Made by a program: the position numbers and the translations under genes
The notes under the pieces: generated by a model
Databases searched by the model: none
What the model saw: the letters and a program-made list of their open reading frames with translations, nothing else
What the model was told of the DNA's origin: nothing
Shown here: positions 2,654-26,512 of the stretch, one piece after another
How the letters are laid out: the number at the start of each line of letters is the position of its first letter
How positions within the stretch are numbered: position 1 is the stretch's first letter
DNA from: an uncultured Leptospirales bacterium
Lineage (GTDB): Bacteria; Spirochaetota; UBA4802; JAFGDQ01
DNA length: 64,000 bases
Assembly (NCBI GenBank): GCA_964626055.1
Contig: CAZVDF010000012.1
Location: forward strand, 4,972-68,971
Direction of reading: 5' to 3'

Positions 2654-2700
2654 CCGTTAAGCAAAAACAGACATAACGTCCGATGTTGTCAAGTAATAAT
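2654..2700 (+). promoter_or_regulatory. Mod-box module copy 1 (degenerate): CGTTAAGCAAAAACAGACATAACG then TGTCAAGTAATAATT, ~120 bp upstream of the porin-like gene
   Basis: Matches the 24-bp palindrome consensus CGTTATGTC-A(n)-CATAACG (right half-site perfect, left with 1 mismatch). Followed at fixed 8-bp spacing by the TGTCAAG box, as in the other six copies. Confidence 0.45.
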
Positions 2701-2823
2701 TCGCTTTTTATCGGAAGAAATTTCTTATAATACCGGAAAAAACAAAGAAATTTATTGACATATATCATGCGTTATATCGATTTTAGCATATCGCAACAAT
2801 ATAATTTTACGGAGGAAAAAATT

Positions 2824-3990
2824 ATGCAAAAAAAAATTTTTATTTTCTTTGTTTTTCTTGTTTTATCTGTTTTTTGTCTGGCCGCGGCAGCTATAGCGCA
2901 GGAAGCGCCCAAACAGGAAGTTCCGAAAGCGCCTGAAAAGCAGTTTGTCGACGTATCCGGGCAGGTGTTTTTCCAATGGGCAAAAGCGCTAACTGTTTCC
3001 GACACTGCGTCGAACGATCATGAGGTTTCGCAATTTTCTTTACAGAGAGCGTACCTGAATTTCAATAAAAAATTCGATGATGTCCTGAGCGCAAAAGTGA
3101 CAACGGACATAGAGAATACCGGGTATGGCACCGATAGCGCGAATACAACTTATAAATTATACATTAAATACGCTTACGCGCAGGCGAAACAGGATTTCGG
3201 GCCGACTAACTTGACCCTGAGGTTCGGGATGATTGATACGCCTGTCATTTCATTTATCGAAAACATAAGCGATGCAAGCTGGATTTACTCTAATTATATC
3301 AGTAAAAGCTCGGATCTTTTTAAAGGCAGCAAGCTCAGCATAGACACCCCGGCCGATATGGGGGCTTCTTTATGCGCCGATATAATAAAGATGGTCAGAA
3401 TTACCGGTCTGTATACGAACGGTAATGGGTACAAATCAACCGCAATGGAAGACAGAAGCAATACAGCCGATAATAAACAATATAAAAATTATGGCAACGC
3501 CTGGCAGGGAATGATAACCGTGACACCGATAGATGGATTATCGGCTTTCGGATTTTACAGGAACCAGGATTGGAATAAAAACACTGACGGGAACTATATA
3601 ATCTATTACGGCGCAGGCGCGGCATATTCGACTAAGCTGATAAAAGCGGGCGCGACATATTCGCTGCCTGAAAAAACAACAAAAAGCACTACAGTTGATA
3701 CAAAAGCCAGGTACTCTTTGCTTGATTCATGGGTTAATGTAAATCTCGATCCTGTTATTCGAATTCCAATTTTACTTTACGGACGTTATGCCGTCGGCAA
3801 AGCCGAGAATAACCAGGCAGAAAAGGACATGGGAACGAAATACGGCAAAAGCACAACCCTTTATGGCATCGGAGCCGGATATGTTGTAAGCGGAAACATG
3901 AGGTTAATGGCCTTCTACCAGAGCACTAAATATAAAGAAGCCAACAAGGCAGATACCGATCTATTTGTTAAAACAGAAATTAAATTTTAA
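2824..3990 (+). CDS. Putative outer-membrane beta-barrel protein (porin-like), secreted
   Basis: RBS GGAGG 8 nt before ATG at 2824. Signal peptide MQKKIFIFFVFLVLSVFCLAAAAIAQ. Alternating amphipathic beta-strand pattern, C-terminal ...KTEIKF with terminal Phe. The ORF-track start at 2755 is probably too far upstream. Confidence 0.5.
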   Translation: MQKKIFIFFVFLVLSVFCLAAAAIAQEAPKQEVPKAPEKQFVDVSGQVFFQWAKALTVSDTASNDHEVSQFSLQRAYLNFNKKFDDVLSAKVTTDIENTGYGTDSANTTYKLYIKYAYAQAKQDFGPTNLTLRFGMIDTPVISFIENISDASWIYSNYISKSSDLFKGSKLSIDTPADMGASLCADIIKMVRITGLYTNGNGYKSTAMEDRSNTADNKQYKNYGNAWQGMITVTPIDGLSAFGFYRNQDWNKNTDGNYIIYYGAGAAYSTKLIKAGATYSLPEKTTKSTTVDTKARYSLLDSWVNVNLDPVIRIPILLYGRYAVGKAENNQAEKDMGTKYGKSTTLYGIGAGYVVSGNMRLMAFYQSTKYKEANKADTDLFVKTEIKF

Positions 3991-4238
3991 TTTTTCAAAA
4001 CAAGAGATCACAGAGGATAACACAGAAAAATCATTGTAACAGATGTAATATTTTTTAAAAAAGGCATTACATTCATGGAATATCAGCTCAAACACATTTT
4101 TCATCGGATGTCCTGCCTTTTTTATATTTGCCATTTTCTGTACTTCTTTCTAAAATTGTCATTCGAATTAATTACATGTATAATTATTCAGAATACAGCA
4201 ACTTTAAATTTTATATTCTTAAATTTTACGAATAAATT

Positions 4239-5093
4239 ATGTTAAACTATATTTCAGATTCAGATATTGAAGGCTTTATAGAAGAAGACGCGCCTTACGG
4301 CGACCTGACCACGCATCTCCTGGGCATTGGAGAAAAAAAAGGCGAGATCGTGTTCTCTTCCCGCGATGAAACAACGCTTTGCTGCACGGAAGAAGCAGGC
4401 AGGCTTTTTGAAAAGCTCGGAGCGAAAGTGATTCTGTCGCTGGCCAGCGGAACAACAGTATCCCCGAACACCGAATTTTTAAAAGTACGGGGTACGGCGC
4501 AGGCCCTGCATTCCGGATGGAAAGCGGCGCTTAATCTTCTGGAATACGCTTCCGGCATATCGAGCAGGACAGCCAGGATAGTAAGATCCGCACGCAAAGT
4601 TAATCCCTCTGTTATGATAGTTTCTACGCGCAAGCTGTTCCCGGGTACAAAGAAGATTGCCGTCAAAGCCGTGGCTGCCGGGGGAGCGCTTCCGCACAGG
4701 CTCGGGCTTTCAGAGACAATACTCGTGTTCAAACAGCATACGGCTTTTCTCGGCGGGCTCGACGTATTTCTTAAAAGCATACCGGAGCTTCGGTCGAGGG
4801 CAAAGGAAACCAAAATAATAGCCGAAGCCGAAAATCCGGAAGAAGCGCTGAAGATAGCATACGCAGGAGCGGATATTGTCCAGATAGATAAAATGAAACC
4901 GGCGGAATTAAGCGAGCTGGTTAAAAAATTACGCGATTCCGCGCCTCAGGTGAAAATATCCGCAGCCGGCGGAATCAACGAATCGAATGCGGCGGAATAC
5001 GCCGCGACCGGGGTAGACATACTCGTCCTTTCTTCCGTCTATTTCGGGAAACCCGCGGACATAGGCGTCCGTATATTACCGATAAAGGAGTAA
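4239..5093 (+). CDS. modD: ModD-like protein (quinolinate phosphoribosyltransferase paralogue found in mod operons)
   Basis: 284 aa with nicotinate-nucleotide pyrophosphorylase fold signatures (…KISAAGGIN… C-terminal TIM-barrel part). Sits immediately upstream of two modA genes. Confidence 0.65.
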   Translation: MLNYISDSDIEGFIEEDAPYGDLTTHLLGIGEKKGEIVFSSRDETTLCCTEEAGRLFEKLGAKVILSLASGTTVSPNTEFLKVRGTAQALHSGWKAALNLLEYASGISSRTARIVRSARKVNPSVMIVSTRKLFPGTKKIAVKAVAAGGALPHRLGLSETILVFKQHTAFLGGLDVFLKSIPELRSRAKETKIIAEAENPEEALKIAYAGADIVQIDKMKPAELSELVKKLRDSAPQVKISAAGGINESNAAEYAATGVDILVLSSVYFGKPADIGVRILPIKE

Positions 5094-5098
5094 TTAAA

Positions 5099-5836
5099 AT
5101 GCAAAAGATTATCTTTTTAATAATATCATTTTTATTTTTTCATCTTTCCGCCAATGCCGCGGAAATAACCTTTGCGGCAGGCGCAGGTTTGAAGGATGTT
5201 CTTAACGACATATCGAACGCATATATGCAGAAAAACCATGATGTTAAAATCACTAAAAATATAGTTGTTTCAGGCATACTTGCCATGCAAATGGACAGCG
5301 GGGCAAAGGTCGATATTGTATTTGTTGCCAATAGAGAATGGATGGATTACCTGAAGGAAAAAAAACACGTTAACAATGAGAGCATTGCGCCGTTTGCCTA
5401 CAATACCCTGGTATTTGTCGGCAAAGGTAAAAATCGCGCGGTGTCGATAGAGGATATTGCCAGGCTCGATAAGATAGCAATAGGAAATCCTAAAAGCGTG
5501 CCGGCCGGTCAATACGCGATTGAAGCTATCAGGAAAGCCGGAATTGAAAATTTGCTCGAGAAAAAGCTCGTAATGTCCCGGGATGTCCGCGAGTGCCTGC
5601 TATACGCCGAGAAAGGCGAGGTGGACGGCGCCTTCGTATATAAGACCGATGCATCGCTCTCATCGAAAGTGACGGTATGGTTCACAGTGCCGCAGAAATA
5701 TTACAGCAGGGTTGTCTATTTATACGCTCTCTCGGCCGACGGGGTTAAAAATAAAAGTGCCGTACAGTTTTTCAATTTCATCCGGAGCGATGAAGCTAAA
5801 AAATCTATTTTAAAATTTGGATTTGAGATCCGTTGA
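5099..5836 (+). CDS. modA: Periplasmic molybdate/tungstate-binding protein, ModA/WtpA family (copy 1)
   Basis: Signal peptide. ModA-family motifs (AAGAGL, …IAIGNPKSVPAGQYA…, FVYKTDA). 245 aa. Confidence 0.8.
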   Translation: MQKIIFLIISFLFFHLSANAAEITFAAGAGLKDVLNDISNAYMQKNHDVKITKNIVVSGILAMQMDSGAKVDIVFVANREWMDYLKEKKHVNNESIAPFAYNTLVFVGKGKNRAVSIEDIARLDKIAIGNPKSVPAGQYAIEAIRKAGIENLLEKKLVMSRDVRECLLYAEKGEVDGAFVYKTDASLSSKVTVWFTVPQKYYSRVVYLYALSADGVKNKSAVQFFNFIRSDEAKKSILKFGFEIR

Positions 5837-5886
5837 TCCGGCGATCAGGACAAAAACAACACACTTGCAAAAGGAGAAAAATTTAT

Positions 5887-6639
5887 ATGAAAAAAAATAT
5901 TATTAAACTAATGCTGGCTTTAGTTTGTGCGATAATATCTGCAGTTCCGGCTTTTGCCGGAGATGTCAATCTGTCGGTTGCCATGAGCCTTAAAGACGTA
6001 ATGACGGACCTGACCCAGCAATTTTCAAAAGAGAATCCGGCCATAAAGTTTCAGACTAATCTCGGCGGATCAGGTGCAATAGCAAAGCAGCTTGAAAGCG
6101 GGGCGCCTGCTGATATGTTCTTTTCAGCCAATATTAAATGGATGAAATTCCTGGAAGAAAAAAAGCTGATTGAAAACAAATACAGTAAAATAATGGCATA
6201 TAACTCCCTTGTTTTTGTAGGCAAACCGGGATTAGATGTAAAAAAAATACAGGACATTATAAAACTCGATAAAATATCGATTGGCAGTCCCAGCAGCGTA
6301 CCCGCCGGCGAATATGCCATGCAGGCTCTAAAAAAAGCCGGTTTTGAAAAACAGCTTGAAAAGAAACTTGTGATGGCAAAGGATGTTCGCACATGTCTTA
6401 TGTATGCGGATAAAGGTGAAGTTAACGGTTCTTTTGTCTACAAAACAGACGCCGAAGAGATGGCAAAGAACGTAAAAATTCTTTTTACTGTTCCCCAGAA
6501 TCTTTACCCGCGCGTAACATATCCGATGGCCCTGACTGTTGCAGGAAGCAAAAATCCGGAAGCTGTTAAATTTTATGAATTTTTACAAACGAAAAAAGCA
6601 AAAACAATTCTTGCGCAGCACGGCTTTATAACAAAGTAA
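5887..6639 (+). CDS. modA: Periplasmic molybdate/tungstate-binding protein, ModA family (copy 2, paralogue)
   Basis: Start refined to the ATG at 5887 (RBS AAAGGAG upstream; signal peptide MKKNIIKLMLALVCAIISAVPAFAG). Same motifs as copy 1 (SIGSPSSVPAGEYA, FVYKTDA). Confidence 0.8.
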   Translation: MKKNIIKLMLALVCAIISAVPAFAGDVNLSVAMSLKDVMTDLTQQFSKENPAIKFQTNLGGSGAIAKQLESGAPADMFFSANIKWMKFLEEKKLIENKYSKIMAYNSLVFVGKPGLDVKKIQDIIKLDKISIGSPSSVPAGEYAMQALKKAGFEKQLEKKLVMAKDVRTCLMYADKGEVNGSFVYKTDAEEMAKNVKILFTVPQNLYPRVTYPMALTVAGSKNPEAVKFYEFLQTKKAKTILAQHGFITK

Positions 6640-6746
6640 ACTAACATACCACTTCTACAATAGTAGGATGTAGATGCTTCCATAAGGCAGGAGGACGAAG
6701 ATTTGGATTCATAACAGCCGTCTATGACGGCGGTTATGAATCCAGA

Positions 6747-6943
6747 GGTCATCTTAAAATTATAAATTCATATAAGTGATTAGCGATAAATAGGGATACA
6801 TTAGAAAATTTTCTGCGGAATCAGACTTTCCTGGTTAATTTTATATGTTTTTGAACGCAACTGCATCAGGTCTGAAAAGCGTCCTCAAAAATTTTCCAAT
6901 GTATCCCTATTTATCAAGAAAGAAAATATAATTTTAAGATAGC
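6747..6943. repeat. MITE-like palindromic element, family 2, copy 1, inserted between modA2 and modB. Nested inverted repeats: outer ATCTTAAAATTATA / TATAATTTTAAGAT, inner AGCGATAAATAGGGATACATTAGAAAATTTT / AAAATTTTCCAATGTATCCCTATTTATC. Core: AAAATTTTCTGCGGAATCAGAC…GTCTGAAAAGCGTCCTCAAAAATTTT.
   Basis: Inverted repeats read directly from the sequence. Homologous copies at 18951-19044, 26547-26800 and 41340-41540. Confidence 0.55.
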
Positions 6944-6964
6944 TTCAATTATATTTTAAAATAT

Positions 6965-7076
6965 AATTTACTCAAGTTGACTGACTTCTTTTATTGATAT
7001 AGTGAACAATAGCGATAAAATGATAAAATTTTATTGCAGATGTTTATACTTTATTTAAAAGAAGTCAGCCAGGTTA
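6965..7076. repeat. Inverted-repeat pair built on the TTACTCAAGTTGACTGAC motif (left arm 6965-6992, right arm ~7058-7076), directly upstream of modB
   Basis: AATTTACTCAAGTTGACTGACTTCTTTT versus AAAAGAAGTCAGCCAGGTT. The same motif forms the outer arms of the 8921-9120 element, and a partial copy lies at 31128-31150 upstream of fliG. It contains a TTGACT -35-like hexamer. Confidence 0.35.
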
Positions 7077-7104
7077 AAAAATAAACTCAGTTTAAATTAA
7101 TTAT

Positions 7105-7791
7105 ATGTTTGAATTTACACAGGCAGACTACTCAGCTATTTTACTTTCTGTTAAGGTAGCGATTACGGCAACCGTTATATCTCTTCCTTTCGGTTTTGCT
7201 GTAGCTTATGTAATGACATATAAACGCTTTCGGGGAATAGTCTTACTGGATGTAATTGTGAATCTCCCGCTTACCCTGCCGCCGGTCGTTATTGGATATA
7301 TTCTGCTTTTGCTTTTAAGCCGGGACGGATTTATAAGCAGAATTCTGCTTCAGCCGCTCGGTATAAGGCTTATCTTTACCTGGAAGGCAGCTGTTATTGC
7401 GACAGCCATTGTTGGTTTCCCCCTCATGGTAAGGTCGATACGTACGGGCATGGAAACTATCGATAAACGGCTTATTCAGGCTTCCCGCACGCTCGGCGCT
7501 GGGAGTATGGACTCGATTATGACGATTATTTTCCCGCTTTCAATTCGCGGAATAATCGCGGGTTCAATTCTTATGTTTGCCCGCGCCCTGGGTGAGTTCG
7601 GGGCCACAATAATCGTCGCAGGCAATATCCCGGGCGTGACCCAGACCATCCCGCTTGCGATTTATGAATATGTAAGCTCCCCAAGAGGAGACCTCATGGC
7701 TATGGCATTATGTACAGTTTCCGTCACAATCTCGGTAATTGTCCTTGTATTTCACGAATGGCTCGGGAGAAAAATGGTAAAGGCCGTCTGA
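7105..7791 (+). CDS. modB: Molybdate ABC transporter permease
   Basis: 228 aa, 5-6 TM helices. Conserved ABC-permease EAA-like loop (…ASRTLGAGSMDSIMTIIFP…). Confidence 0.85.
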   Translation: MFEFTQADYSAILLSVKVAITATVISLPFGFAVAYVMTYKRFRGIVLLDVIVNLPLTLPPVVIGYILLLLLSRDGFISRILLQPLGIRLIFTWKAAVIATAIVGFPLMVRSIRTGMETIDKRLIQASRTLGAGSMDSIMTIIFPLSIRGIIAGSILMFARALGEFGATIIVAGNIPGVTQTIPLAIYEYVSSPRGDLMAMALCTVSVTISVIVLVFHEWLGRKMVKAV

Positions 7792-7792
7792 T

Positions 7793-8845
7793 ATGGAATT
7801 ATCTTTCAACCTTAAAAAGAAATATCATTCATTTTCGCTGGATATCGATTATTCCGCGCATGGCGGCAGAACCGGGGTGTTCGGTCCGTCAGGAAGCGGT
7901 AAATCCACTCTCATGAGCCTGCTCGCCGGGCTTGAGCATCCGGACAGCGGATTTATCAGCCTCGACGGGGAGACGCTTTTCGACAGCGGACATCATGTCA
8001 GCATTCCGCCCGATAAAAGAAGGATAGGCATTGTTTTCCAGCAGCCGCATCTTTTCCCGCATCTTTCGGTTCGGAATAACCTGCTCTACGGATTCAAACG
8101 TTCCGCGCCGGGAGACCGCAAAATAACTCCGAACAGCATTGTAAATGTCCTCCGGATAGAAAATCTTATGCACAGAAATGTGGCCAATCTGTCCGGAGGA
8201 GAAAAACAGCGCGTCGCAATCGGCAGAGCCGTTCTCTCGAATCCCAGGCTTCTTCTAATGGACGAACCTCTGTCGGGCCTTGACGACAAGCTGAAATTCC
8301 AGATCATCCCGTTCATAAAAAAAACATGCGAGACATTCAACATACCGTATATCTTCATATCGCATTCGATACTTGAAATGAGAATAATGACGGACCGCGT
8401 TCTGCCGATCTCCGAAGGCCGCGCCGCGGGAAGCGTCACATCCGATGAACTGGCCCTGGGGCACATGAAGGATTCAGCCGGCTATATCAATCTTTTAAGG
8501 CTTCAAAATCCCAGAAGGATCGACGGCATGTACGCGTACAGATGGGGCGGACAGAACGTTTTAATTTCCGACGGCAGCGATACGGACGAAGCGCTTTTCC
8601 AGATATTATCAACGGATATAATACTTTTTAAACGCCATCCTGAAGCTACCAGCGCGAGAAACCTTCTGAAATGCAGGGTCAAGAATGTTTTTCAAACCGG
8701 ACACAGGCTCGGTGTCGAGCTCGATTGCGGCGGAGAAAAGCTTATCGCTGAAATAGTAAAAGAGTCCGCCGAAGAGCTCGGAGTCCGCGAAGGAGCGGAG
8801 ATATTTGCCGCGATGAAAGCGGTCGCATTCAGGCGGCTGCTGTAG
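7793..8845 (+). CDS. modC: Molybdate ABC transporter ATP-binding protein with C-terminal TOBE (Mop) domain
   Basis: Walker A GPSGSGKST, LSGGEKQR, LLMDEP; C-terminal ~70-aa TOBE-like beta domain; start overlaps the modB stop. Confidence 0.85.
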   Translation: MELSFNLKKKYHSFSLDIDYSAHGGRTGVFGPSGSGKSTLMSLLAGLEHPDSGFISLDGETLFDSGHHVSIPPDKRRIGIVFQQPHLFPHLSVRNNLLYGFKRSAPGDRKITPNSIVNVLRIENLMHRNVANLSGGEKQRVAIGRAVLSNPRLLLMDEPLSGLDDKLKFQIIPFIKKTCETFNIPYIFISHSILEMRIMTDRVLPISEGRAAGSVTSDELALGHMKDSAGYINLLRLQNPRRIDGMYAYRWGGQNVLISDGSDTDEALFQILSTDIILFKRHPEATSARNLLKCRVKNVFQTGHRLGVELDCGGEKLIAEIVKESAEELGVREGAEIFAAMKAVAFRRLL

Positions 8846-8920
8846 TCCGAAAATAATATTTTTATTTGCTTTATTCTCTCCTGCGCATTATAATCCGAAC
8901 ATAATCTTTAAAAATAAACA

Positions 8921-9120
8921 AATTATTTACTCAAGTTGACTGACTTTTATCACACTTAATACTATCGATAGAATGATAGATTATGATCAATTTTCCGCAT
9001 CAAATACCCCATCCGTGGACTCTTCGGCGGTCGGCAACATCCATGTTGCCTTAAAATTGATCATAATCTATCATTCTATCGCAAATGTTTATAAAAAAGT
9101 CAGTCAAGATGAGTTATTTA
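8921..9120. repeat. Composite palindromic element: outer arms AAATTATTTACTCAAGTTGACTGACTTTT / AAAAAGTCAGTCAAGATGAGTTATTTA enclosing MITE-like family 1 copy A (8964-9081: TIRs ATCGATAGAATGATAGATTATGATCAATTTT / AAAATTGATCATAATCTATCATTCTATCG, core hairpin GGCAACATCCATGTTGCC)
   Basis: The core 8985-9052 is the reverse complement of 15425-15495 (copy B, opposite orientation). Confidence 0.55.
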
Positions 9121-9132
9121 AAGGAGGCGCAT

Positions 9133-9339
9133 ATGCAATTAAGCGCAAGAAACCAGCTTAAAGGCAAAGTGCTCAGCGTCGATCTCGGGACCATTATGGC
9201 AAAAGTAAAGATCGATATCGGCGGGGGTAACAAAATAACATCACTGATATCCAAAGAAGCTGTCGAAGACCTGAAAATAAAAGCAGGTGACAGCATCACA
9301 GCTATTATTAAAGCTACCGAGGTTATGGTAGGGAAATAA
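9133..9339 (+). CDS. mop: Molbindin: stand-alone TOBE/Mop-domain molybdate-binding protein (~68 aa)
   Basis: RBS AAGGAGG 6 nt upstream of the ATG at 9133. MQLSARNQLKGKV…ITAIIKATEVMVG matches the TOBE/Mop fold pattern. The ORF-track start at 9085 is probably too early. Confidence 0.7.
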   Translation: MQLSARNQLKGKVLSVDLGTIMAKVKIDIGGGNKITSLISKEAVEDLKIKAGDSITAIIKATEVMVGK

Positions 9340-9885: not shown

Positions 9886-9935
9886 CATAACGTTATGTTA
9901 ATAAAAACATAACGATTATTGATGTCAATAATAAT
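9886..9935 (+). promoter_or_regulatory. Mod-box module copy 2: CCATAACGTTATGTTAATAAAAACATAACG (three half-sites) then TGTCAATAATAATT, upstream of the receiver gene
   Basis: 24-bp palindrome CGTTATGTTAATAAAAACATAACG at 9891-9914 with perfect GTTATG/CATAAC half-sites. Confidence 0.55.
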
Positions 9936-10211: not shown

Positions 10212-11267
10212 TTATACTGGAGGCAGACACTGCAGTATCCTTTCCGCATCCTTATCCGTTATTTTTTTTCCGTAAATATCGGAATAATATGCTTTCATTT
10301 CTTTTATCATGTCGATGTTTTTAAATAATCCGGGATGGAATATCTTTACCATGTATATCATAAGCAGCACGCCTTCATTGCTTGCGTGATCCCATGCGTA
10401 AACGCCCATAGGCATTCGATACACCCTTTTATTCTTAACAGCCCTGAGATTCGCGAACTCCGGGTTTTTCTTTGCAATATCCGTCGAATCAAAATATCCG
10501 CTGAGGAGAATAATATCCGGGTCCCACGAAAGCACCTGTTGCGCGGATGCCTTTGCATGATTATCATCGATCGCTTCCGGCAGAAAGTTGCCCCCGGAAA
10601 CTTCAACGTTCCAGTGCATTACGCTGCCTTTTCCCTGGCTGCCCATCAGGCTGCCGTGCAGGCCGCCGTAATAAACAGAAGGCCTCTTTTTTCTATCTAT
10701 CTTTGATGTTATCGCAAGGATCTGCTTTACTTTTTTATCGAAATACTTATTGTATTTATCCGCTCTTGCTTTTGCGTCCGACCCCAGAAGGTCGCCGAAC
10801 ATCGTCACCTGTCCCTTAAAGTTTTCGATGTAGTCATTTACATTCATTGGTCTTTTTTCGGCTGAGAAAGCGCATACTGTCTTTAAACCGACAGAGCTGT
10901 ATTGTTCGCCTTTTGTCATGCCGGGCGTATAAAGCACGAAATCGATCTTCTCCTTCAGCAGATCCTCAGGTTTAATGCTTTTATTCGCACAGGCCTTTTT
11001 TATTTCCGGGAACAGCCTGTAAGCCCATGGCGATTGTTTTGCCATATGACTTATCCGGTCTCCTTTGCCCAGCGTCATTATTTTCTCCGGGGAAACACAG
11101 TGCATGCACGCGATCTTTTTCGGATCAGCCGGAATTTCGACCTTGTTTCCACACATGTCAGTTATTATTTTATTTTCTCCGGCATAAAGCGGAGAGCCAG
11201 TCCTGCTCATGCCAAAAGAAATGCCTAAAAGCATTATAATTGAATAAATAAGAATTGTTTTTTTCAT
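10212..11267 (-). CDS. Periplasmic substrate-binding protein of a siderophore/cobalamin-type ABC system (FecB/BtuF, Peripla_BP_2 family)
   Basis: Signal peptide. 351 aa. Family pattern: …DPDIILLSGYF…; C-terminal region similar to the PBP at 17672 and the pseudogene fragment at 21898. Confidence 0.75.
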   Translation of the reverse strand: MKKTILIYSIIMLLGISFGMSRTGSPLYAGENKIITDMCGNKVEIPADPKKIACMHCVSPEKIMTLGKGDRISHMAKQSPWAYRLFPEIKKACANKSIKPEDLLKEKIDFVLYTPGMTKGEQYSSVGLKTVCAFSAEKRPMNVNDYIENFKGQVTMFGDLLGSDAKARADKYNKYFDKKVKQILAITSKIDRKKRPSVYYGGLHGSLMGSQGKGSVMHWNVEVSGGNFLPEAIDDNHAKASAQQVLSWDPDIILLSGYFDSTDIAKKNPEFANLRAVKNKRVYRMPMGVYAWDHASNEGVLLMIYMVKIFHPGLFKNIDMIKEMKAYYSDIYGKKITDKDAERILQCLPPV

Positions 11268-11382
11268 TTTATAAAAGCTCCACGTATATTTTCCTGTTCA
11301 TTTATAAAGATATCCGGGTGAGGAAAAATTTATAAAATCATTGTTTTATTATCCCCACCAAGGATAAATTTATATTTTTAAG

Positions 11383-13843: not shown

Positions 13844-13890
13844 CGATATGTCCAAAAAAACATAGCGTTTATATATGTCAATATATATTT
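13844..13890 (+). promoter_or_regulatory. Mod-box module copy 3: CGATATGTCCAAAAAAACATAGCG then TGTCAATATATATTTT, 26 bp upstream of the TBDR1 start
   Basis: Matches the module consensus (2 mismatches in half-sites). Confidence 0.55.
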
Positions 13891-14025: not shown

Positions 14026-14254
14026 CAAAATGAGATTCATTTATCATTATGTAAAATTTAACATATCGCGAATTCCTGTCGACAAATTTTTTAAAAAATA
14101 TATTTAAAACTTATGTTCTGTACGCGATGTATTGTAAAAACGGAATTGGGCGATCAGGCTTTTCTGGTAATCGCTTTCCTCAGCATGGGCGGAAGCGTCC
14201 GGAAATAAAAGCAGCAGGCAGAATATCTGTTTCATCGGTATGTTCTCCTTTATT

Positions 14255-15332: not shown

Positions 15333-15394
15333 AATTTATTACCTCCTTATTAAAATAATAGCTTATCCGATATATTTTTATATAATGGATAAAC

Positions 15395-15522: not shown

Positions 15523-15552
15523 TAAAAAATTAATGTAATAAAAGTTAGTATA

Positions 15553-17590: not shown

Positions 17591-17638
17591 CGTTATGTCA
17601 AAAAAAACATAACCTGGATGCTTGTCAAGGTATTTTTA
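17591..17638 (+). promoter_or_regulatory. Mod-box module copy 4 (best consensus): CGTTATGTCAAAAAAAACATAAC then CTTGTCAAGGTATTTTTAAA, 23 bp upstream of the moeA start
   Basis: Perfect inverted half-sites GTTATG/CATAAC. Resembles the E. coli ModE operator architecture (from memory: CGTTATATT…TACATAACG). Confidence 0.6.
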
Positions 17639-18724: not shown

Positions 18725-18950
18725 GTATTTATCCCATATACTCTTTATAATGCATGGCAGAGACGGGTTTATTATGAAATAAAACCATCGCTTTTGGCTG
18801 TGGTCCACCGGTCTTTTCAACGGTGGAAATACGGGTTATGCCCGTATTCTTTTCATAACAAACGACCAAAATTGTCATCTTGAAAGAAATGTATTTTAAT
18901 AATGCTTTTAATAGGGGCTGTCTTAAAACAAAGCCTGTTTAATATGTAAT

Positions 18951-19044
18951 ATCGAAATTCGATTATATTAGTAAAATTTTCTGCGGAACTCGGCCTTCGG
19001 GCTCAGACAGTCCTCGAAAATTTTACTAATATAATCGAATTTCT
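18951..19044. repeat. MITE-like family 2, short copy, between TBDR2 and PBP2 (IR ATCGAAATTCGATTATATTAGTAAAATTTTC / GAAAATTTTACTAATATAATCGAATTTC; core CTGCGGAACTCGGCCTTCGGGCTCAGACAGTCCTC)
   Basis: Shares the AAAATTTTCTGCGGAA…TCCTCGAAAATTTT core with the other family-2 copies. Confidence 0.5.
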
Positions 19045-19198
19045 TAGAACCAAGACATTTTGGGACAACCTCTTGTTTATAATAGAACTGCGACCTCTAA
19101 AATTATTTAATTGTAAAGTCAGCTGCCGGCACAAGGCTGCGCAACATCCGAGTTGTTGCCGGCGGCTGCTTACATAGGATGAGTTATTTATACTCCTT

Positions 19199-21544
19199 TT
19201 AAACTTTTCCTGAAACAGTGAATATAACGGTTAATGGAGCAGCTGGAGCGTATGTGCCGCTGCCGTCGTATTGATATTCAGTCCAGTTGATAGTTCCTAC
19301 ATATTTTCTGTTGAAAAGATTCGTAACAGATATGCCTGCCGTAAAATCCTTGATCCCGAACAAAGAATCTTTTTTATACGCAATATTCAGATCCGCAGTA
19401 ATATAGCTTGGAACCCATTGATTATTTTCCATATTGCCATATCTGAGATCAACGTATCTCGCTATCGGCGATACTGATATATCCCATATCTTGTATTCAA
19501 GCCCCGCTGTTGCTGACCATTTCGGGCAGTCCGGCACCTGGTTGCCTTTTGCGTGTACAACATTGCTGGATGATGTTTTTACGTCATCTGAAAAGGTATA
19601 GTTGTCATACGCGCCTGAAGAAAAGATTGTGAAGTTTTTAGCCGGTGATACACCTGCCGTGAGTTCTGCGCCGTAAGATCGCGCTTTTGCGGAGCTCTCA
19701 AAATAATAGACGCCGGTACCGATGGTCGGGTCATAGATTTTAACTTGTTTATGACGATACATGGCATAAAAAACGGAAGGCTCGACATACCAACTTTCTT
19801 TGTTATATCTCATGCCTAAATCGAAGTTGTCTACGATTTCAAGTCTCAGCTTTCTCCATAGATCCTGGAAAGTAATACCGGCAGCATTAAATTGGCTCTC
19901 AAATGCGTAGTATGTTGCCGGAACAGATCCCCAGTTCTGACGGCCGTATCCGCGCGCGTAATTTGCGCGTACGACTGCGTCGCTGCCGAAGGAGTAGCTG
20001 ACACCCGCGTTCGGGAGCCATTCACGGAATGTCTTCCCGTCGCATATCATACCTCCTCTAATTGATGGATTCTGATCCCATACGTCGTCGCCGTTCGCAT
20101 CTGCCAGATCGCGGCCATCGTAATATTTGTAAGAAGGTTCACGATAGATAAGATAACGTACTCCGCCGGTTAGCATTAAATTACCGATATTGCTTTCGAG
20201 ATTCACAAAAGGGCTGTTGCTTTTATGATCTGTAAATTTAGCGAGGTTATTCCAGCCTGCGAATGTCAGTGATCCGTTGTTTTGAATTCTATAAGCTTTT
20301 TGATTGCTTGGGGGGGGCGGCGGCTGCATTGATTGATACCAGTGTCCAAGGCTGACGCTATGGCCTTTAAAAGTATGATCATAGCTCAATACTCCCCCGT
20401 ATGTATCATGTTTTTGATACCAATAGGTTACTCCGGGTCGATTAAGATCTGCAGCTCTTACGTTGGATAGCTTGCTGGTCCCGGATATTGATAAACCGTC
20501 TTCCCGTATGTAATAAGGTTTCAAAAACAGTTTACCGTTATCAAAAACAGATAATACGGCTTTTCCGAAAACAGCCTGTTCCGTATATCTCTGCTTATTG
20601 TAATCTTTATAAGCCCAATCCTGTGCCGAGTAAGTCTTTTTATCATTATAGCTATATTTGTAGTTGTCGGAATCTGAAATATTTTTTGCTTGTTCATATG
20701 TTAGATTTCTGTAGTTATGCCCATTGTCCCTGCTCCATATTCCATATGCTTCGATATAGAGCCTGCTTAATATAGTCTGTGTTAAGCCTATTTCTGCGTT
20801 CTGACGCTGCTGAAAACCATCGCCGCGCCATTGATTCGCGTAAGTATAAGAACCGGAAGCGAAAATGCTGGTACCCCACGGCATTTTACCGGAATCAACC
20901 CTAGCATAAGTTTTGGTGAAATCGTAAGTGCCGACGGATTGTTTTACCTGTGTGGAGAATGTGTCGGACGGCTTCAGCATAATCATGTTTATAACTCCTC
21001 CGGCATTTGAAAATCCGAATCCTTTGTTTGCCGGCACAGCTCCGCTGTAAAGCGTAGTGCTTTCTATGTTTTCCAGATCGATAATATCGCCCTGTGCTCC
21101 GAAATAATGACCTCCCTGAATCGGTACGCTGTCAACGTTTCGGCATAGATGATAGGAATTTTTCCCTCTGATATTGACAGCCTGGCCTTTATCCAAACCA
21201 TATGCATCCGGGCTTTGTATATTGACTGATGGCAGAGTTTGTAGCGGCATTAACGAATTTGTCTGACTTGCCCCGCCAAGTCGTTCGATGCCTTTTTTAT
21301 TCACTGTTCTTTCCTGATATGGCTCCTTTCCTTTTCTTTCGAAAAAATTTTCGCGTTTCCCTTTTACGACGATCTCGGCTGAAAGGGGCACTTCGTTTCC
21401 GCTTTTCTCTTTTTCAACATCCGCTTCTTTTTTATCGACGTCTTTAGATGAATCCAGGGCATTGACGTCATTAAAGGCTATAAAGCAGAATAGCAACGAT
21501 AAAAAAAGTATTGTTTTACTTAATGGATATTGCTTGCATTTCAT
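19199..21544 (-). CDS. TonB-dependent outer-membrane receptor (TBDR2), paralogue of TBDR1
   Basis: 781 aa. Signal peptide. TonB-box-like AEIVVKGKR. Plug plus barrel architecture. Mod-box upstream. Confidence 0.7.
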   Translation of the reverse strand: MKCKQYPLSKTILFLSLLFCFIAFNDVNALDSSKDVDKKEADVEKEKSGNEVPLSAEIVVKGKRENFFERKGKEPYQERTVNKKGIERLGGASQTNSLMPLQTLPSVNIQSPDAYGLDKGQAVNIRGKNSYHLCRNVDSVPIQGGHYFGAQGDIIDLENIESTTLYSGAVPANKGFGFSNAGGVINMIMLKPSDTFSTQVKQSVGTYDFTKTYARVDSGKMPWGTSIFASGSYTYANQWRGDGFQQRQNAEIGLTQTILSRLYIEAYGIWSRDNGHNYRNLTYEQAKNISDSDNYKYSYNDKKTYSAQDWAYKDYNKQRYTEQAVFGKAVLSVFDNGKLFLKPYYIREDGLSISGTSKLSNVRAADLNRPGVTYWYQKHDTYGGVLSYDHTFKGHSVSLGHWYQSMQPPPPPSNQKAYRIQNNGSLTFAGWNNLAKFTDHKSNSPFVNLESNIGNLMLTGGVRYLIYREPSYKYYDGRDLADANGDDVWDQNPSIRGGMICDGKTFREWLPNAGVSYSFGSDAVVRANYARGYGRQNWGSVPATYYAFESQFNAAGITFQDLWRKLRLEIVDNFDLGMRYNKESWYVEPSVFYAMYRHKQVKIYDPTIGTGVYYFESSAKARSYGAELTAGVSPAKNFTIFSSGAYDNYTFSDDVKTSSSNVVHAKGNQVPDCPKWSATAGLEYKIWDISVSPIARYVDLRYGNMENNQWVPSYITADLNIAYKKDSLFGIKDFTAGISVTNLFNRKYVGTINWTEYQYDGSGTYAPAAPLTVIFTVSGKV

Positions 21545-21744: not shown

Positions 21745-21790
21745 CGCTATGTCTAAAAAAACATAACGTATATTCGTGTCAATAATTATT
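21745..21790 (+). promoter_or_regulatory. Mod-box module copy 5: CGCTATGTCTAAAAAAACATAACG then TGTCAATAATTATTTATAT, upstream of TBDR2
   Basis: Matches the module consensus. Confidence 0.55.
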
Positions 21791-22128: not shown

Positions 22129-23091
22129 CTATTTCGCGTTCCTGAAAATATCCGCAAGGTTTTTCTTTAACCGGTGAATGTCGTTATTCCTTATGAAATC
22201 CCATCCGACCCATTTAAACCCGGCTCCTTCAGGCAACCTGTTGTCGACATCTATGTGCTGGCTTGGGAATCCCATTCCCGCAGCCAGTTCCCCGAAATCT
22301 TTTCCGGTTATATATAAAGCTAAAACCTCCGCCCTTTTGAGCCCGATTTTTTTAACAAGCATGTATACCGGTTCAAGTATGGCGCCGTCTTCAGGCCAGA
22401 TAAGCTCCATCCCGTCATTCGTTGAGTCTTTCAATGCAAAATGATAGGGTATTGCATACACGGCCGGTTTGTCTTTTTTGCCTGCCATGTCGTTCACAAT
22501 TTTCGAATACCCTTCCACTGCTATAACATTACGGGCCAGCTTTTTTATTCCGTCTTCTCCGAAATATTTGAATATTGTAAATAACACTGCGTCATTCGCG
22601 ATGCCGTCTTTCCCGCTGACTGCGATCTTTTTTGTGTATTTATCATCAAGGATATCCGTCCATCCGGCAGGCGCAGGCAGCTTCCCCAATTCTCTCCTGT
22701 CCGCCAGGAATACATAAGGGAAGGAAGAAACAAGCCTGTAACACCCTATTTTATCGATATATCCGTCATTTTGAAAATTTTCATTCATCCGCTCATCGGC
22801 GAATCCCGCGAAATTCTCCGTATTTGCGAATTTTTTTATGAATTCGGATTTCATAAAATCTCCGAATCCCATTGAAATGATTACATCAGGCAGCATTTCC
22901 ATGCTTTTAATGTCAGTAAAATTATCGTATTTCGCTCTGTCCTCTGAAAAAGAAGGCAAGACAACCACTAGCTCCTCTCCCGTCTTCAATTTATGCTCTT
23001 CCAGCAAAATGTTCAGTCGTGCCAGCAGCGGTCTTTCCATGGGGCACGGAGCAAATGCAATCATATTTATTTCCCTGTTATCAACGATCAT
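22129..23091 (-). CDS. Substrate-binding-protein-like (type-2 PBP fold?) protein lacking a signal peptide; function unknown
   Basis: 320 aa. No hydrophobic N-terminus. 12-nt gap after the ATPase gene, so no room for a leader. Weak resemblance to Fe3+/thiamine-type solute-binding proteins. Low certainty. Confidence 0.35.
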   Translation of the reverse strand: MIVDNREINMIAFAPCPMERPLLARLNILLEEHKLKTGEELVVVLPSFSEDRAKYDNFTDIKSMEMLPDVIISMGFGDFMKSEFIKKFANTENFAGFADERMNENFQNDGYIDKIGCYRLVSSFPYVFLADRRELGKLPAPAGWTDILDDKYTKKIAVSGKDGIANDAVLFTIFKYFGEDGIKKLARNVIAVEGYSKIVNDMAGKKDKPAVYAIPYHFALKDSTNDGMELIWPEDGAILEPVYMLVKKIGLKRAEVLALYITGKDFGELAAGMGFPSQHIDVDNRLPEGAGFKWVGWDFIRNNDIHRLKKNLADIFRNAK

Positions 23092-23103
23092 GATGTTATC
23101 CTC

Positions 23104-23937
23104 CTAAATATCATTCTCCTTAAAATTTTTCTTATTATTTTTTCCTGAAATCCCGCATACGGACTTAGGTATGCATACCCTCAGAGAATCGTTCAACTTC
23201 AATACATTCACGCTTGCGTTATAAAGGTCGGATAGGCTCTCACTGTTAATCACGTCGTCGCTTTTGCCGTCGGCCGCTATGACGCCGTTTTTAATCATGA
23301 TCGCGCGATCGGCTATCCAGAGCGCATGCTCCGGGGAATGCGTCGATTTAATGAATGTATAGCCTTCCTTCGACAGCTTGACTATTTCTTCGAGCAGCTT
23401 TAGCTGATTCCCATAATCGAGTCCGCTTGCGGGTTCGTCCATAATGACTGTTTTTGCTCCCTGTGCGAGTGCCCTTGCGATTATTGTAAGCTGTCTTTCA
23501 CCGCCGCTGATTTCAGTGTATGGCCTTTCCGCAAGATGCAATATTGACAGCCTTTTCATGGCTTCATGCGCGATTCGCACATCGTCTTTAGTGTATTTAT
23601 AAAAAAAATTTTTATGCGGGATCCTGCCCATAAGAACGACATCAATAACACTGTAAGGGAAAACCGTTTTATGAATCTGCGGGACATAAGCGATTTTTCG
23701 CGCAAGCTCTTTGATGCCGATGTCGCTGATATTTTTTCCGTTAACATATATGTTGCCTCTGGCCGGGTTAAGGAATCTAAGCATAATCCTGATCAGCGTT
23801 GTTTTGCCGCTGCCATTCGGGCCGAGAATAGTTACGATTTCTCCCTCAGTAACATTAAAATTAATTTGCTCGAGAATAATTCTATTTGTGTATCCGAATG
23901 AAATATCGCTTACACTGATATGCCGCTTTAGCTCCAT
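23104..23937 (-). CDS. ABC transporter ATP-binding protein, FepC/FecE type
   Basis: GPNGSGKTT, SGGERQ, IMDEP motifs; 277 aa; overlaps the permease gene. Confidence 0.85.
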   Translation of the reverse strand: MELKRHISVSDISFGYTNRIILEQINFNVTEGEIVTILGPNGSGKTTLIRIMLRFLNPARGNIYVNGKNISDIGIKELARKIAYVPQIHKTVFPYSVIDVVLMGRIPHKNFFYKYTKDDVRIAHEAMKRLSILHLAERPYTEISGGERQLTIIARALAQGAKTVIMDEPASGLDYGNQLKLLEEIVKLSKEGYTFIKSTHSPEHALWIADRAIMIKNGVIAADGKSDDVINSESLSDLYNASVNVLKLNDSLRVCIPKSVCGISGKNNKKNFKENDI

Positions 23938-24947
23938 CCCTTCCTCGCCTTTCTTAATATAAGCACAAAGAACGGTATGCCTATAATAGATGTGATTATT
24001 CCGATTGGTATCTCGACATCAAAAAGAAGCCGTGAAAAATTGTCGACTATGATAAGATAGGAAGCCCCGATAAGAGCGCTTGCGGGGATTAATACTTTGT
24101 TGTCCGGTCCTATTAACATCCTGGCGATATGCGGAATGATAAGCCCTACCCAGCCTATCATTCCAGCCATAACAACCGTCATTGCGCTTATTACTGTCGA
24201 GATCAAAATAAGCAGCATTCGAATTTTGCCGACAGGAACTCCGAGAGCCTGCGCTTCATCATCTCCAAGGCTCAATGCGTTTATGTAACCGGAAAGAAGG
24301 ATGATAATGATTATCCCGGTAGTTTGAGTTACAGCAGAAAAAAAAGCCGTATGTTTGTCGCAAAATGATAGACTCCCCATGAGCCACTGGGTTATGGCCG
24401 GGAGCTGGTTATATGGATCTGCGACATATTTCATGATCGAAAGCATCGCTGTAAAAAATGCGCCGCTTATTACGCCTCCAAGTATTAAAAGAAGAACAGA
24501 ATTTCCCCTGTACATCTTTGCGATCCCGACTGAGATCATGACTGCCGCGAAACCGAAACTGAATGTAAGCACCTGCACCGTAAACCAGCTTTTTGCAGTA
24601 ATCATTCCCAGAGCGGCGCCAAAGGAAGCACCTGCGAGAACACCCAGAATGGACGGGGAGACAAGCGGATTAACGAATATAGCCTGGTACGTTGCCCCTG
24701 AAACAGCCAGAGAGGCTCCTATTACAAGACCCGCCACAATCCGAGGCATCCTTATTTCAATTAAAATATTATTCAGAAGCTGAAGCCTGCCGGCATCCAT
24801 ATCGCATACGTTAAACAGTTTGTTTAAAAAAAAACAGACTGTGTCTCTGACAGGGACCGGGTACTTTCCCATTGTAAGTGAAACAACCACTGTACAGACC
24901 AGTATTAAACCAAGCAGGATGAATAATTTTTTCTTGTGAAATATCAT
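23928..24947 (-). CDS. FecCD/BtuC-family ABC permease
   Basis: 339 aa, ~9-10 TM helices, conserved FecCD core (…RIVAGLVIGASLAVSGATYQAIFVNPLVSPSILGV…). Confidence 0.85.
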   Translation of the reverse strand: MIFHKKKLFILLGLILVCTVVVSLTMGKYPVPVRDTVCFFLNKLFNVCDMDAGRLQLLNNILIEIRMPRIVAGLVIGASLAVSGATYQAIFVNPLVSPSILGVLAGASFGAALGMITAKSWFTVQVLTFSFGFAAVMISVGIAKMYRGNSVLLLILGGVISGAFFTAMLSIMKYVADPYNQLPAITQWLMGSLSFCDKHTAFFSAVTQTTGIIIIILLSGYINALSLGDDEAQALGVPVGKIRMLLILISTVISAMTVVMAGMIGWVGLIIPHIARMLIGPDNKVLIPASALIGASYLIIVDNFSRLLFDVEIPIGIITSIIGIPFFVLILRKARKGWS

Positions 24948-25267
24948 ATGGAATTATTTATCTTTTAAATTTCTTCTTTATTATTTGCCTTAAATCCCGC
25001 CTTTCTCTGCTGAATGACAGCAAACACTACTCAAAAAAAATCAGCCCTGATAATCCGATTAATTTTTTATTTAAAAGTTAACAGAGAAAGATACTTTTTA
25101 AATATCTTCCCGCTTACTTGATCTTCCGCAATTCGGTTACAGTAACAGTTATTGAATTTACATTATTAATATATGGAACAACATATTACTTGTTACCTTG
25201 TGTTTGCATTTCGCACAATACCTGTTATAAAAGTTATAATTATTTTCTAAAACTATTATAAGTTGCT

Positions 25268-26137
25268 TTACCGTTTGTCCATAACAGGCAGTTTATTCCG
25301 GCTGATCACTACCCGCTCTGCCGATTTGCCGTAAAAGTGATAACCGGAACCGGCTTCCATAAGCGTGTCCAGAAGCGCGTCCGGATTTGTTACCATAATA
25401 CCGCCGATTTTATTTACTCCACGCCTGAAAAAAGCTTCGGGGAGCATGCTGGCGGTAGGCCATACCAGTATAACTTCCGCTTCAGGGCGCGCAAGTTTCA
25501 GTATATCCTGCAGCGTATCGTTGATCAGCGTAGTGCCAGTAATAATGAGAAAATCCGACTTACTTATGCATTCATTCGCTTTTTCCGGAGGACAATAGTA
25601 TTGGAGCTCATTGGCTTTGAGAGTACGCGTATCCTTCTCCAGGATATGAAACGGACGCCCCCGTGTTTTAAGCAGTCTGATATACGGTATAAGCGCGCCT
25701 ATCACTGTAACATCCGCGTCATCCGGAATAATACTGTTTTCCACAGGGTCTGCATTGTATATAATAAAATATGCTTCGGGAGATACCTTTTTCCAGTATG
25801 TCTCTGAAAGCGCGTTTAAAACCGCGATTCCCAGCGCTGCCTGCAAAGGACTTTCCTTTCTCAGATTCTCAATATATTCGGAAACCGGACGCTCTATCAA
25901 TTTTCCGCACTCCGGCATTGCCCGAAGTGAACTCGGGCAGCAGACGGCCTCAGGTATTTCCTTTACAGGCGTAAAACATATTCCGCCCTCTCCGTTGGAA
26001 AGTTTAACGCCGGAAAAAAATAATCCAATTACCGCCCTCTCAACTTTAATCGAATCCATTTCCGGCCCCAGTACAGTCCGCAGATGGTCCGCTGTCTCCA
26101 TCAGGATCTCTCGCTTTAAATTTTGTTTTAACTCCAA
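25268..26137 (-). CDS. DUF4213/DUF364-type protein (Rossmann-like 'putative heavy-metal chelation' domain family)
   Basis: 289 aa. Domain-family resemblance recalled from memory, not searched. First gene of an operon with FecCD/FepC. Mod-box 37 bp upstream. Confidence 0.45.
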   Translation of the reverse strand: MELKQNLKREILMETADHLRTVLGPEMDSIKVERAVIGLFFSGVKLSNGEGGICFTPVKEIPEAVCCPSSLRAMPECGKLIERPVSEYIENLRKESPLQAALGIAVLNALSETYWKKVSPEAYFIIYNADPVENSIIPDDADVTVIGALIPYIRLLKTRGRPFHILEKDTRTLKANELQYYCPPEKANECISKSDFLIITGTTLINDTLQDILKLARPEAEVILVWPTASMLPEAFFRRGVNKIGGIMVTNPDALLDTLMEAGSGYHFYGKSAERVVISRNKLPVMDKR

Positions 26138-26173
26138 AATAGCAACCTCCGGCTTTTTTATTAAAATGCACTG

Positions 26174-26221
26174 CGATATGTCAAAAAAAACATAACATAG
26201 CTGCCTGTCAAGGGTATTTTT
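26174..26221 (+). promoter_or_regulatory. Mod-box module copy 6: CGATATGTCAAAAAAAACATAACA then CTGTCAAGGGTATTTTT, upstream of the DUF364 operon
   Basis: Matches the module consensus. Confidence 0.6.
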
Positions 26222-26464
26222 ATAGTATTAAATTTTAATTGAAAATTTATCCGGCAGGAAGAATATATGGCAAAAAAATGGGCGCACCTTGCCGGATGCA
26301 CCCATAATATCAATGGTTTTGAGAATATACCTGAAATTTACGCACGGCCTTTTTTGGGGGGGGAAGGCCGGTTATAAATCCAGGCAGGATATAAAGGTAA
26401 CGAATTAACTTTCTAATCTATGCGTTACAATTACGTTAAGTCTAAAAAGATTATCGGAAATATT

Positions 26465-26512
26465 CGTTATGTCAATTTAAACATAACGAATATTTCCTGT
26501 CAAGTATTTATA
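26465..26512 (+). promoter_or_regulatory. Mod-box module copy 7: CGTTATGTCAATTTAAACATAACG then TGTCAAGTATTTATAAT; no adjacent minus-strand gene; nearest plus-strand gene is the ModE-like regulator 600 bp away
   Basis: Perfect half-sites. Confidence 0.6.

Follow-up and report, generated by a model that had tools for sequence, protein, structure and literature searches.

Nine probable promoter modules with putative ModE-type operators in a molybdenum and tungsten gene region of an uncultured Leptospirales bacterium

The stretch of DNA considered here, referred to below as the window, comprises 64,000 nucleotides of contig CAZVDF010000012.1 from an uncultured Leptospirales bacterium (Spirochaetota). 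Distributed among its genes for the acquisition of molybdenum and tungsten (Mo/W) are nine copies of a short module in which a 24-bp palindrome stands at a nearly fixed distance from a TTGACA hexamer. We consider it quite likely, from the sequence comparisons assembled below, that each module is a sigma-70-type promoter with an operator for a ModE-type regulator in its core, through which nine Mo/W units would be repressed. An earlier note on the same DNA had recognized seven of these modules and had proposed that they carry ModE operators; its reading of their orientation and of some of their targets is revised here.

The modules and the genes they face

The gene map described in this section is based on Pfam, NCBIfam and PDB comparisons. 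Beginning at the left, the module at 2655..2692 on the minus strand (TTGACA at 2692-2687, an 8-nt spacer and the palindrome at 2678-2655) faces a gene for a calcineurin-like metallophosphoesterase (1544-2596, minus strand), whose ATG lies 58 nt downstream. The earlier note had this site serve the porin gene, which is instead preceded by a module of its own in the inverted orientation (2755..2793, plus strand), where TTGACA at 2755-2760 is followed by a 9-nt spacer, the palindrome CGTTATATCGATTTTAGCATATCG at 2770-2793, a GGAGG and then the true porin ATG at 2824, 30 nt downstream. The operon that begins there (2824..9339, plus strand) consists of genes for a porin (2824-3990), ModD (4239-5093), two ModA proteins (5099-5836 and 5833-6639), ModB (7105-7791), ModC (7793-8845) and a stand-alone Mop/TOBE molybdate-binding protein. 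The Mop gene occupies 9085-9339 (plus strand) rather than 9133-9339 as first given, and its product was correctly recognized as such, with a score of 82.6 bits against TIGR00638, above the 55-bit cutoff of that model.

The remaining modules are all read on the minus strand. The one at 9891..9928 has a perfect palindrome and lies 78 nt before a gene for a weak CheY-like receiver (9387-9812, minus strand), and the one at 13844..13881 lies about 25 nt, with an intervening GGGAGG, before the start of a gene for a TonB-dependent receptor (11383-13818), which is paired with a gene for a Peripla_BP_2 (MolA-like) binding protein (10212-11267; the pair spans 10212..13818, minus strand). Module 17591..17628 is followed by GGAGG and, 22 nt after the palindrome, by the ATG of moeA (16234-17568), the first gene of a moeA-exbB-exbD-tonB operon (17568-14255, minus strand). 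Module 21745..21782 precedes, by a 200-nt leader, the gene for a second TonB-dependent receptor (19199-21544), again paired with a Peripla_BP_2 (MolA-like) gene (17672-18820; the pair spans 17672..21544, minus strand). Module 26174..26211 lies 36 nt before the start of an operon (22129..26137, minus strand) for a DUF364 protein (25268-26137), a FecCD/MolB-like permease (23928-24947), an ABC ATPase (23104-23937) and an SBP_bac_6 protein (22129-23091). Module 26465..26503, which has the best -10 sequence of the set (TTGACA-18-TAAATT / TTAAAT) and palindrome arms extended to 18 bp, would drive a non-coding unit. For the second receptor gene the earlier note had proposed a distance of 20-40 bp from the site; its actual start is 200 bp away.

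The weakest module (14045..14082, minus strand) has TCGACA in place of TTGACA, two mismatches in the palindrome and a -10-like TAAATT after TG, and a hairpin/T-run terminator that looks bidirectional (13997-13985) follows about 50 nt on. It lies (13985-14082, minus strand) between the end of the tonB operon and this terminator, where there is no gene for it to drive. It may define a short RNA unit of about 60 nt, or be a vestigial or decaying duplicate of the neighboring module at 13844.

All seven of the sites listed in the earlier note exist, with the correction that two of the palindromes start at 2655 and 9891 instead of 2654 and 9886; an extra half-site at 9886-9892 abuts the palindrome that starts at 9891. 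When 110 nt were printed at each of the seven coordinates, the copies could be written as CG(T/A/C)TATGT-N8-ACATA(A/G/T)C(G/C/A), followed by 8-9 nt, TGTCAA(G/T) and an AT-rich stretch, with the copy at 2655 as the most divergent. A mismatch-tolerant search of the window for CGTTATG-N10-CATAACG yielded 12 matches with at most 3 mismatches, versus 2.5 expected, and nine of the 12 are module sites, namely the seven together with 2770-2793 and 14045-14068, which had been missed. The association of the palindrome with the TGTCAAG box at 8-9 bp was borne out by pattern searches of the window, in which CATAAC-N9-TGTCAA was found together with the palindrome, and by counts of the composite motif (palindrome with at most 2 mismatches plus TTGACA/TGTCAA with at most 1 mismatch at 8-9 bp), which occurs nine times in the window and not once in 100 first-order Markov simulations. 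A repeat search recovered the same module family independently (as families D1/D2).

A weight matrix derived from the nine sites gives each of them at least 26 bits, scores that are partly circular since the matrix was made from the sites it scores, and 13.6 bits to the next best position in the 64 kb. All nine modules are confined to 2.6-26.5 kb, and the matrix scan found no site in the remaining 37 kb of the window, which carries genes for flagella, Rnf/Nqr, CoA activase and other functions. Within the window the motif is tied to a Mo/W acquisition regulon and to nothing else.

Promoter architecture and operator identity

It had seemed odd that the seven modules first noted share one orientation and run against most of their presumed target genes, and two explanations had been offered, that only the palindrome matters or that the module is a repeat in its own right or a promoter directed to the right. 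The oddity disappears when the modules are reverse-complemented. The TGTCAA(G) box, read on the minus strand, is (C)TTGACA, the consensus for a -35 hexamer, with the operator 8-9 bp downstream of it, and each of the seven then reads as an AT-rich tract, (C)TTGACA, 8-9 nt, the palindrome and a short leader, followed either by a Shine-Dalgarno sequence and start codon or by a non-coding unit that ends in a terminator. The seven modules have the same orientation because all seven drive minus-strand units, and the plus-strand porin operon has the inverted copy. The AT-rich "tail" of the earlier description is present, although it lies upstream of the -35 hexamer and is therefore an UP-element-like tract rather than a tail. 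We read the module as a promoter plus operator, leftward in these seven cases, rather than as a mobile repeat.

The same layout occurs in five other Spirochaetota contigs, for a total of 21 modules including the nine in the window. The closest match in the genome collection scanned was a Spirochaetes metagenome-assembled genome (L002), which has four modules and a ModE-N protein 87% identical to the one described below; its isolate name (Zod_) suggests that it came from a sulfidic spring, a setting in which free molybdate would be scarce. Three modules were found in L094 (before two receptors and DUF364), two in L093 (before a porin-modAABC-modE operon and a divergent gene), two in L098 and one in L099. 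In four of these five contigs the motif lies within about 500 bp of the gene for ModE-N; L093 is the exception, with modE about 5 kb from the motif and within the operon that the motif precedes.

TTGAC(A) stands on the gene side of the palindrome in 9/9 modules of the window and in all 12 from the other contigs. The hexamer is exactly TTGACA in eight of the nine window modules, variants among the 21 being TCGACA, TTGACG and TTGACT, and the gap between hexamer and palindrome is exactly 8 nt in 17 of the 21 aligned modules. Information in the alignment is concentrated in the hexamer and the half-sites. The 40 nt upstream of the modules are 86% AT, versus 57% for the window, and include an A-tract whose distance of 5-10 nt from the hexamer is that of the proximal subsite in E. 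coli UP elements. The inner 8 nt of the palindrome are T-rich on the coding strand, an asymmetry that follows gene direction and therefore belongs to the promoter and not to the symmetric operator. The operator lies between the consensus -35 and the leader, and since 22-58 nt separate the palindromes from the start codons, which have GGAGG before them, transcription must start within or just upstream of the operator. Patterns for extracytoplasmic function (ECF), sigma-54 and sigma-28 promoters, looked for at the modules by inspection, did not fit.

Comparison with defined ModE sites supports the proposal that the palindrome is a ModE-type operator, or Mo-box. It agrees with the modA operator of E. 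coli (CGTTATATTGTCGCCTACATAACG, read from strain MG1655) in 13 of 14 positions and in spacing, and its half-sites (Mo-box half-sites CGTTATAT/GTTATGT, in a span of 24 bp) fit RTTATGT-N8-RCATAAY, the ModE motif of Methanosarcina acetivorans, both halves of which were required in gel shifts (PMC12327845). In a set of 80 modE-N loci, from Firmicutes and Bacteroidota, there are 45 copies of the palindrome, versus about 4 expected; most are a few hundred bp or less from the gene, and in 35 of the 80 loci the palindrome adjoins modE-N (within about 500 bp). A Mo-box also stands in a modABC promoter, in the window as site 2770-2793, 30 nt before porin-modD-modA-modA-modB-modC-mop, and likewise in L093. 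A scan of metagenomes with TTGACA-N8-9-CGYTATG-N10-CATARCG gave 10 matches, of which three were Mo-linked (modE-N once and modABC in two cases) and the others uninformative, with close relatives contributing none, a result that says little on the coupling to the -35 hexamer since the pattern itself selects for it.

The presumed regulator is encoded by modE-N (27116..27466, plus strand), which is followed by flagellar genes and specifies 116 aa that consist of a ModE DNA-binding domain. The earlier identification of a ModE-N-like regulator at this position was confirmed by matches to TIGR00637 and, in the PDB, to ModE (1o7l/1b9m, E 5e-9) and to a 135-aa protein, 2ijl. Fourteen of 14 close homologues are of the same kind, 95-134 aa in length with PF00126 as their only domain. 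The separate Mop protein of the mod operon is a candidate for a trans-acting sensor partner of ModE-N.

The system resembles, and departs from, three others that have been described. The E. coli ModE-modA pair has CGTTATA-N10-CATAACG where the window has CGTTATG-N10-CATAACG, and in both cases the operator overlaps the core promoter (presumed, in the window) and about 20-30 nt separate its end from the start codon (21 nt for modA in MG1655), the winged-helix N-domain is homologous and modABC is a target; in the window, unlike E. coli, the N-domain stands alone beside a separate Mop, there is a consensus -35 at a fixed 8-9 bp with a T-rich -10, and the nine sites form a cluster that takes in TonB-system genes and an RNA unit. 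The ModE regulon of M. acetivorans has the same extended half-sites (GTTATGT...ACATAAC), multiple sites clustered in one genomic region, and sites before operons of the "Fe ABC transporter" type and a molybdate transporter (PMC12327845), whereas its promoters are archaeal, its ModE keeps one Mop domain, its targets include alternative nitrogenases and no outer-membrane receptors are involved. The single-domain ModE proteins of Desulfovibrio spp. (PMC545781) and Agrobacterium (2ijl) share with ModE-N the possession of a DNA-binding domain only, with Mop domains separate. The sensing of the metal by the Desulfovibrio proteins has already been flagged as unexplained (PMC545781), and the site predicted for them is CGGTCACG-N14-CGTGACCG (PMC545781), whereas the canonical ModE box is kept here. 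In the Spirochaetota of this report an unchanged canonical box is found with a regulator that lost its metal-sensing domains, a combination that should be well suited to studying how Mo/W is sensed by ModE proteins of a single domain.

Proposed repression of the Mo/W units and competing readings

In the direction of each gene, the proposed control region would run from an AT-rich UP-like region with its A-tract through TTGACA, the 8-9-nt spacer and CGTTATGT-N8-ACATAACG to a leader with a Shine-Dalgarno sequence and the start codon. The palindrome would extend from about -21 to +3 and overlie both the -10 region and the transcription start, and a dimer of ModE-N bound to it would exclude RNA polymerase, as at E. 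coli modA. With Mo/W in sufficient supply, a coordinated shut-off would affect nine transcription units, namely those for ModABC with the porin, ModD and Mop, for the two receptor/MolA-like pairs, for MoeA with ExbB-ExbD-TonB, for the DUF364/MolB-like importer, for the phosphoesterase, for the receiver-like protein and for the candidate small non-coding RNA; when Mo/W is scarce, all would be released. That the units are repressed and not activated, where exactly the -10 and the start site lie, and how a regulator that has no Mop domain senses metal (possibly through the separate Mop protein) are parts of this scheme that we infer; the architecture of the modules with its statistics, their orientation to the genes, their recurrence in five other Spirochaetota contigs and the identity of the palindrome with ModE operators defined by experiment are observed directly.

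Several observations weigh against the scheme as drawn. In most of the modules before protein genes, a T-run (TTTTTT, TTTTAT) that lacks the usual A at -11 takes the place of the hexamer expected 16-18 bp after TTGACA; it is preceded by TG, as in TGT-TTTTTT, and occupies palindrome positions 8-15 (for example 17599-17606). A consensus promoter scan, with a spacer of 16-18 bp and a hexamer whose second and sixth positions had to be A and T, passed only modules 26465 and 14045 on the -10 rule, and TAAATT/TTAAAT is found at the -10 position only in the RNA-unit modules. The -10 assignment for most of the modules is therefore uncertain, and an unusual mechanism of open-complex formation or dependence on an activator is possible. 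As for the regulator, the score of ModE-N against TIGR00637 (E 7.6e-18, 64.4 bits) is below the 98.5-bit trusted cutoff of NCBIfam, and the domain search found HTH_1/TIGR00637 only and no Mop/TOBE domain, which is not the canonical E. coli-type architecture with two Mop domains. DNA binding by an E. coli ModE variant whose C-terminal Mop domain is missing does not depend on Mo, and the ModE of M. acetivorans showed no molybdate response in vitro (PMC12327845); with these precedents, and with the absence of a Mop domain from ModE-N, a response of ModE-N to the metal is uncertain. Finally, the confinement of the sites to Mo/W genes applies to the 64 kb of the source genome that the analysis covers.

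Other assignments of the promoter elements account less well for the modules. A -10 might be seen in the TATGTT of the left half-site, by analogy with TATATT in E. coli; this is less likely, as the required -35 would fall in the six nt before TTGACA, where there is no conservation, and TTGACA itself would be left unexplained. The inner TTGACA of the palindrome was considered as a -35 paired with a -10 further downstream and rejected, since the spacings that result are inconsistent (12-18 bp) and the Shine-Dalgarno sequence would be deleted at moeA.

The weak -10 sequences bear on the idea that ModE acts as an activator or co-activator. A perfect -35 combined with a defective -10 would need a protein between -35 and +1, in the manner of MerR, so that the ModE-bound form would switch the regulon on; most of the modules do lack a canonical -10 with an A at -11, and ModE is a dual regulator in E. 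coli (MG1655 annotation; PMC12327845). We nevertheless regard activation as improbable, since the geometry from -35 to palindrome is unlike the 19-20-bp spacer of MerR promoters. The known sites of activation by ModE lie upstream of promoters, whereas cover of the -10 and +1 is the layout of repression at modA, and uptake genes are, to our knowledge, universally repressed by Mo-ModE. It might also be supposed that a different regulator, for example a tungstate-specific or iron-linked one, binds the palindrome and that the neighboring ModE-N is incidental, given that TonB-dependent receptors, ExbBD-TonB and FecCD importers are classic genes of iron regulons and that ModE-N has no sensing domain. 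This too appears decidedly unlikely: no Fur box (a 19-bp GATAATGATAATCATTATC-like sequence) with 3 or fewer mismatches was found anywhere in the window, a genuine modABC operon has the same site in front of it, ModE sites that have been validated show an identical motif, and the motif co-occurs with modE-N across three phyla.

The suggestion that the module is a repeated or mobile unit, or a rightward plus-strand promoter of which only the palindrome is functional, could draw on the common orientation of the seven copies first noted and on the repeat search, which groups the copies as a family. We give it very little credence. The copies are only 60-80% identical to each other, with the identity concentrated in the -35 hexamer and the half-sites, whereas the true repeats in the window that resemble miniature inverted-repeat transposable elements (MITEs) are 80-85% identical over their full length and are bounded by terminal inverted repeats. 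Several modules have the 3' end of a convergent minus-strand gene as their right-hand neighbor (at 17672, for example), a Shine-Dalgarno sequence with a start codon, or a terminator-bounded unit, is found to the left of all of them, and the inverted copy serves the plus-strand operon. The units are always 5' of a gene and in the sense orientation, in contrast to MITEs and repetitive extragenic palindromic (REP) elements.

Outer-membrane targets, the candidate small RNA and other repeats

The operator itself is a textbook one, and what is less ordinary about the region is its targets, the Mop-less regulator and the candidate ModE-controlled small RNA. Among the targets, the FecCD permease of the DUF364 operon has MolB (HI1471) as its best solved relative (E 1.2e-63), and both Peripla_BP_2 proteins match MolA (HI1472), among other class III binding proteins; MolBC-A (HI1470-72) of Haemophilus influenzae is a type II molybdate/tungstate ABC importer (PMC4031551). 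The likeness to MolBC-A extends to the permease and the two binding proteins, and differs in that the binding proteins are here paired with TonB-dependent receptors, the importer operon adds DUF364 and SBP_bac_6, and all are under ModE boxes. Genes for DUF364 have repeatedly been noted beside transporters for Mo, W and vanadium, and within a modABC operon of Methanococcus that shows cofitness with nif. The PDB sequence search found no match for the receptor encoded at 19199-21544 or for the SBP_bac_6 protein.

In at least 10 Bacteroidota loci (L024, L026, L048, L052, L059, L062, L064, L071, L073 and L077, with L074 repeating the arrangement of L073) a ModE box is situated directly upstream of a TonB-dependent receptor gene that adjoins modE-N; in one of them, L026, the order is box-receptor-box-modE-N-modA-modB-modC. 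These arrangements suggest a widespread and undescribed link of ModE to outer-membrane receptors. No described TonB-dependent receptor for Mo/W was found in the literature searched, which was a limited collection. The nine co-regulated units would constitute a list of candidates for TonB-dependent acquisition of Mo/W, a step that is uncharacterized for these metals. A more speculative proposal, which we find attractive without quite favoring it, is that the regulon encodes a full, energized outer-membrane route for Mo/W, composed of the two receptor/MolA-like pairs, the dedicated ExbB-ExbD-TonB system co-transcribed with moeA, and the MolB-like importer with DUF364, and that the ModE-controlled RNA of about 200 nt might act as a Mo-sparing riboregulator, as RyhB does for iron.

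That RNA (26268..26470, minus strand) would be transcribed from module 26465, downstream of which, on the minus strand, come about 165 nt devoid of open reading frames and then a strong intrinsic terminator (26305-26278 plus a T-run), the last of three hairpins. The unit has been kept beside modE in three of the other contigs (L002 3742-3943, L098 218-413 and L099 1470-1700, all minus strand); in L002 the counterpart of module 26465 is 105 bp from a divergent modE, and the gene after the unit differs between the window and L002 even though the unit is conserved. It folds better than shuffled sequences (z = -3.5), and a consensus of the four sequences has three hairpins with compensatory changes in 11 of 48 pairs. 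A C/U-rich (CCUCC-like) middle loop occurs in three of the four copies, and the idea of an anti-Shine-Dalgarno C-rich loop as a defining feature of the RNA was downgraded because the loop is absent in L098. Among 41 sources, a covariance model of the RNA found only its four training loci, and for the 26470-26268 unit Rfam gave no match better than E 0.2, far below gathering scores. Rfam searches for a molybdenum cofactor (Moco) or other riboswitch in the leaders, run over 1-30 kb at gathering scores and at E<=1 and over 26240-26500 at E<=10, returned nothing beyond TwoAYGGAY-like repeats and noise. The unit resembles the RyhB-type small RNAs controlled by Fur in that the operator of a metal repressor lies in the promoter of a terminator-bounded non-coding unit adjoining the regulator gene, and is unlike them in having no sequence or Rfam relationship, so that the likeness would be limited to a possible mode of action. 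What emerges is a candidate for a conserved, ModE-controlled small RNA.

A longer ModE palindrome, with 7-9 bp added at either end, is peculiar to the small-RNA module (26456-26497 in the window, ~401-438 in L098 and ~1686-1727 in L099), and the extension arms differ by genome yet stay complementary (GGAAATATT/AATATTTCC, AATCAAT/ATTGATT and AAATTTCAT/ATGAAATTT). As the left arm is upstream of the presumed transcription start, an explanation of the extension as an RNA hairpin is not obviously applicable.

Two smaller features were noted beside the TonB-related genes. The 200-nt leader of the second receptor gene (21545-21744, minus strand) is partly conserved with L094 31-215 (minus strand) and contains a strong AAGGAGG followed by a very short upstream open reading frame (5 codons in the window and 10 in L094, not conserved in sequence), and may be a leader-peptide or other cis-regulatory element. 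Directly after tonB there is an unannotated open reading frame of 41 codons (14108-14234, minus strand) with a Shine-Dalgarno sequence and a signal-peptide-like N-terminus (MKQIFCLLLLFPDASAHA...).

The window also contains other families of repeats. The MITE-like family (6743-6950, 26543-26806 and 41337-41544) has members of about 200-260 bp, with terminal inverted repeats of about 36 nt; one copy lies in the gap between modA and modB, and another separates module 26465 from modE, the two elements that are 105 bp apart in L002. Matches to the Rfam TwoAYGGAY RNA, each of about 140 nt, were found at 15383-15532 (plus strand, 51.3 bits), 8956-9092 (minus strand, 42.2 bits) and 1395-1531 (minus strand, 37.3 bits), the gathering score being 43; they occupy intergenic gaps within or beside Mo/W operons, two are in antisense orientation relative to the operon around them, and their multicopy behavior suggests a repeat element. 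A GC-rich hairpin repeat, GGTGCCCCCTC(A/C)GGGGGATAGGGGGTC, is present in three copies in intergenic gaps of the flagellar region (33316-33361, 34956-35001 and 39378-39423).

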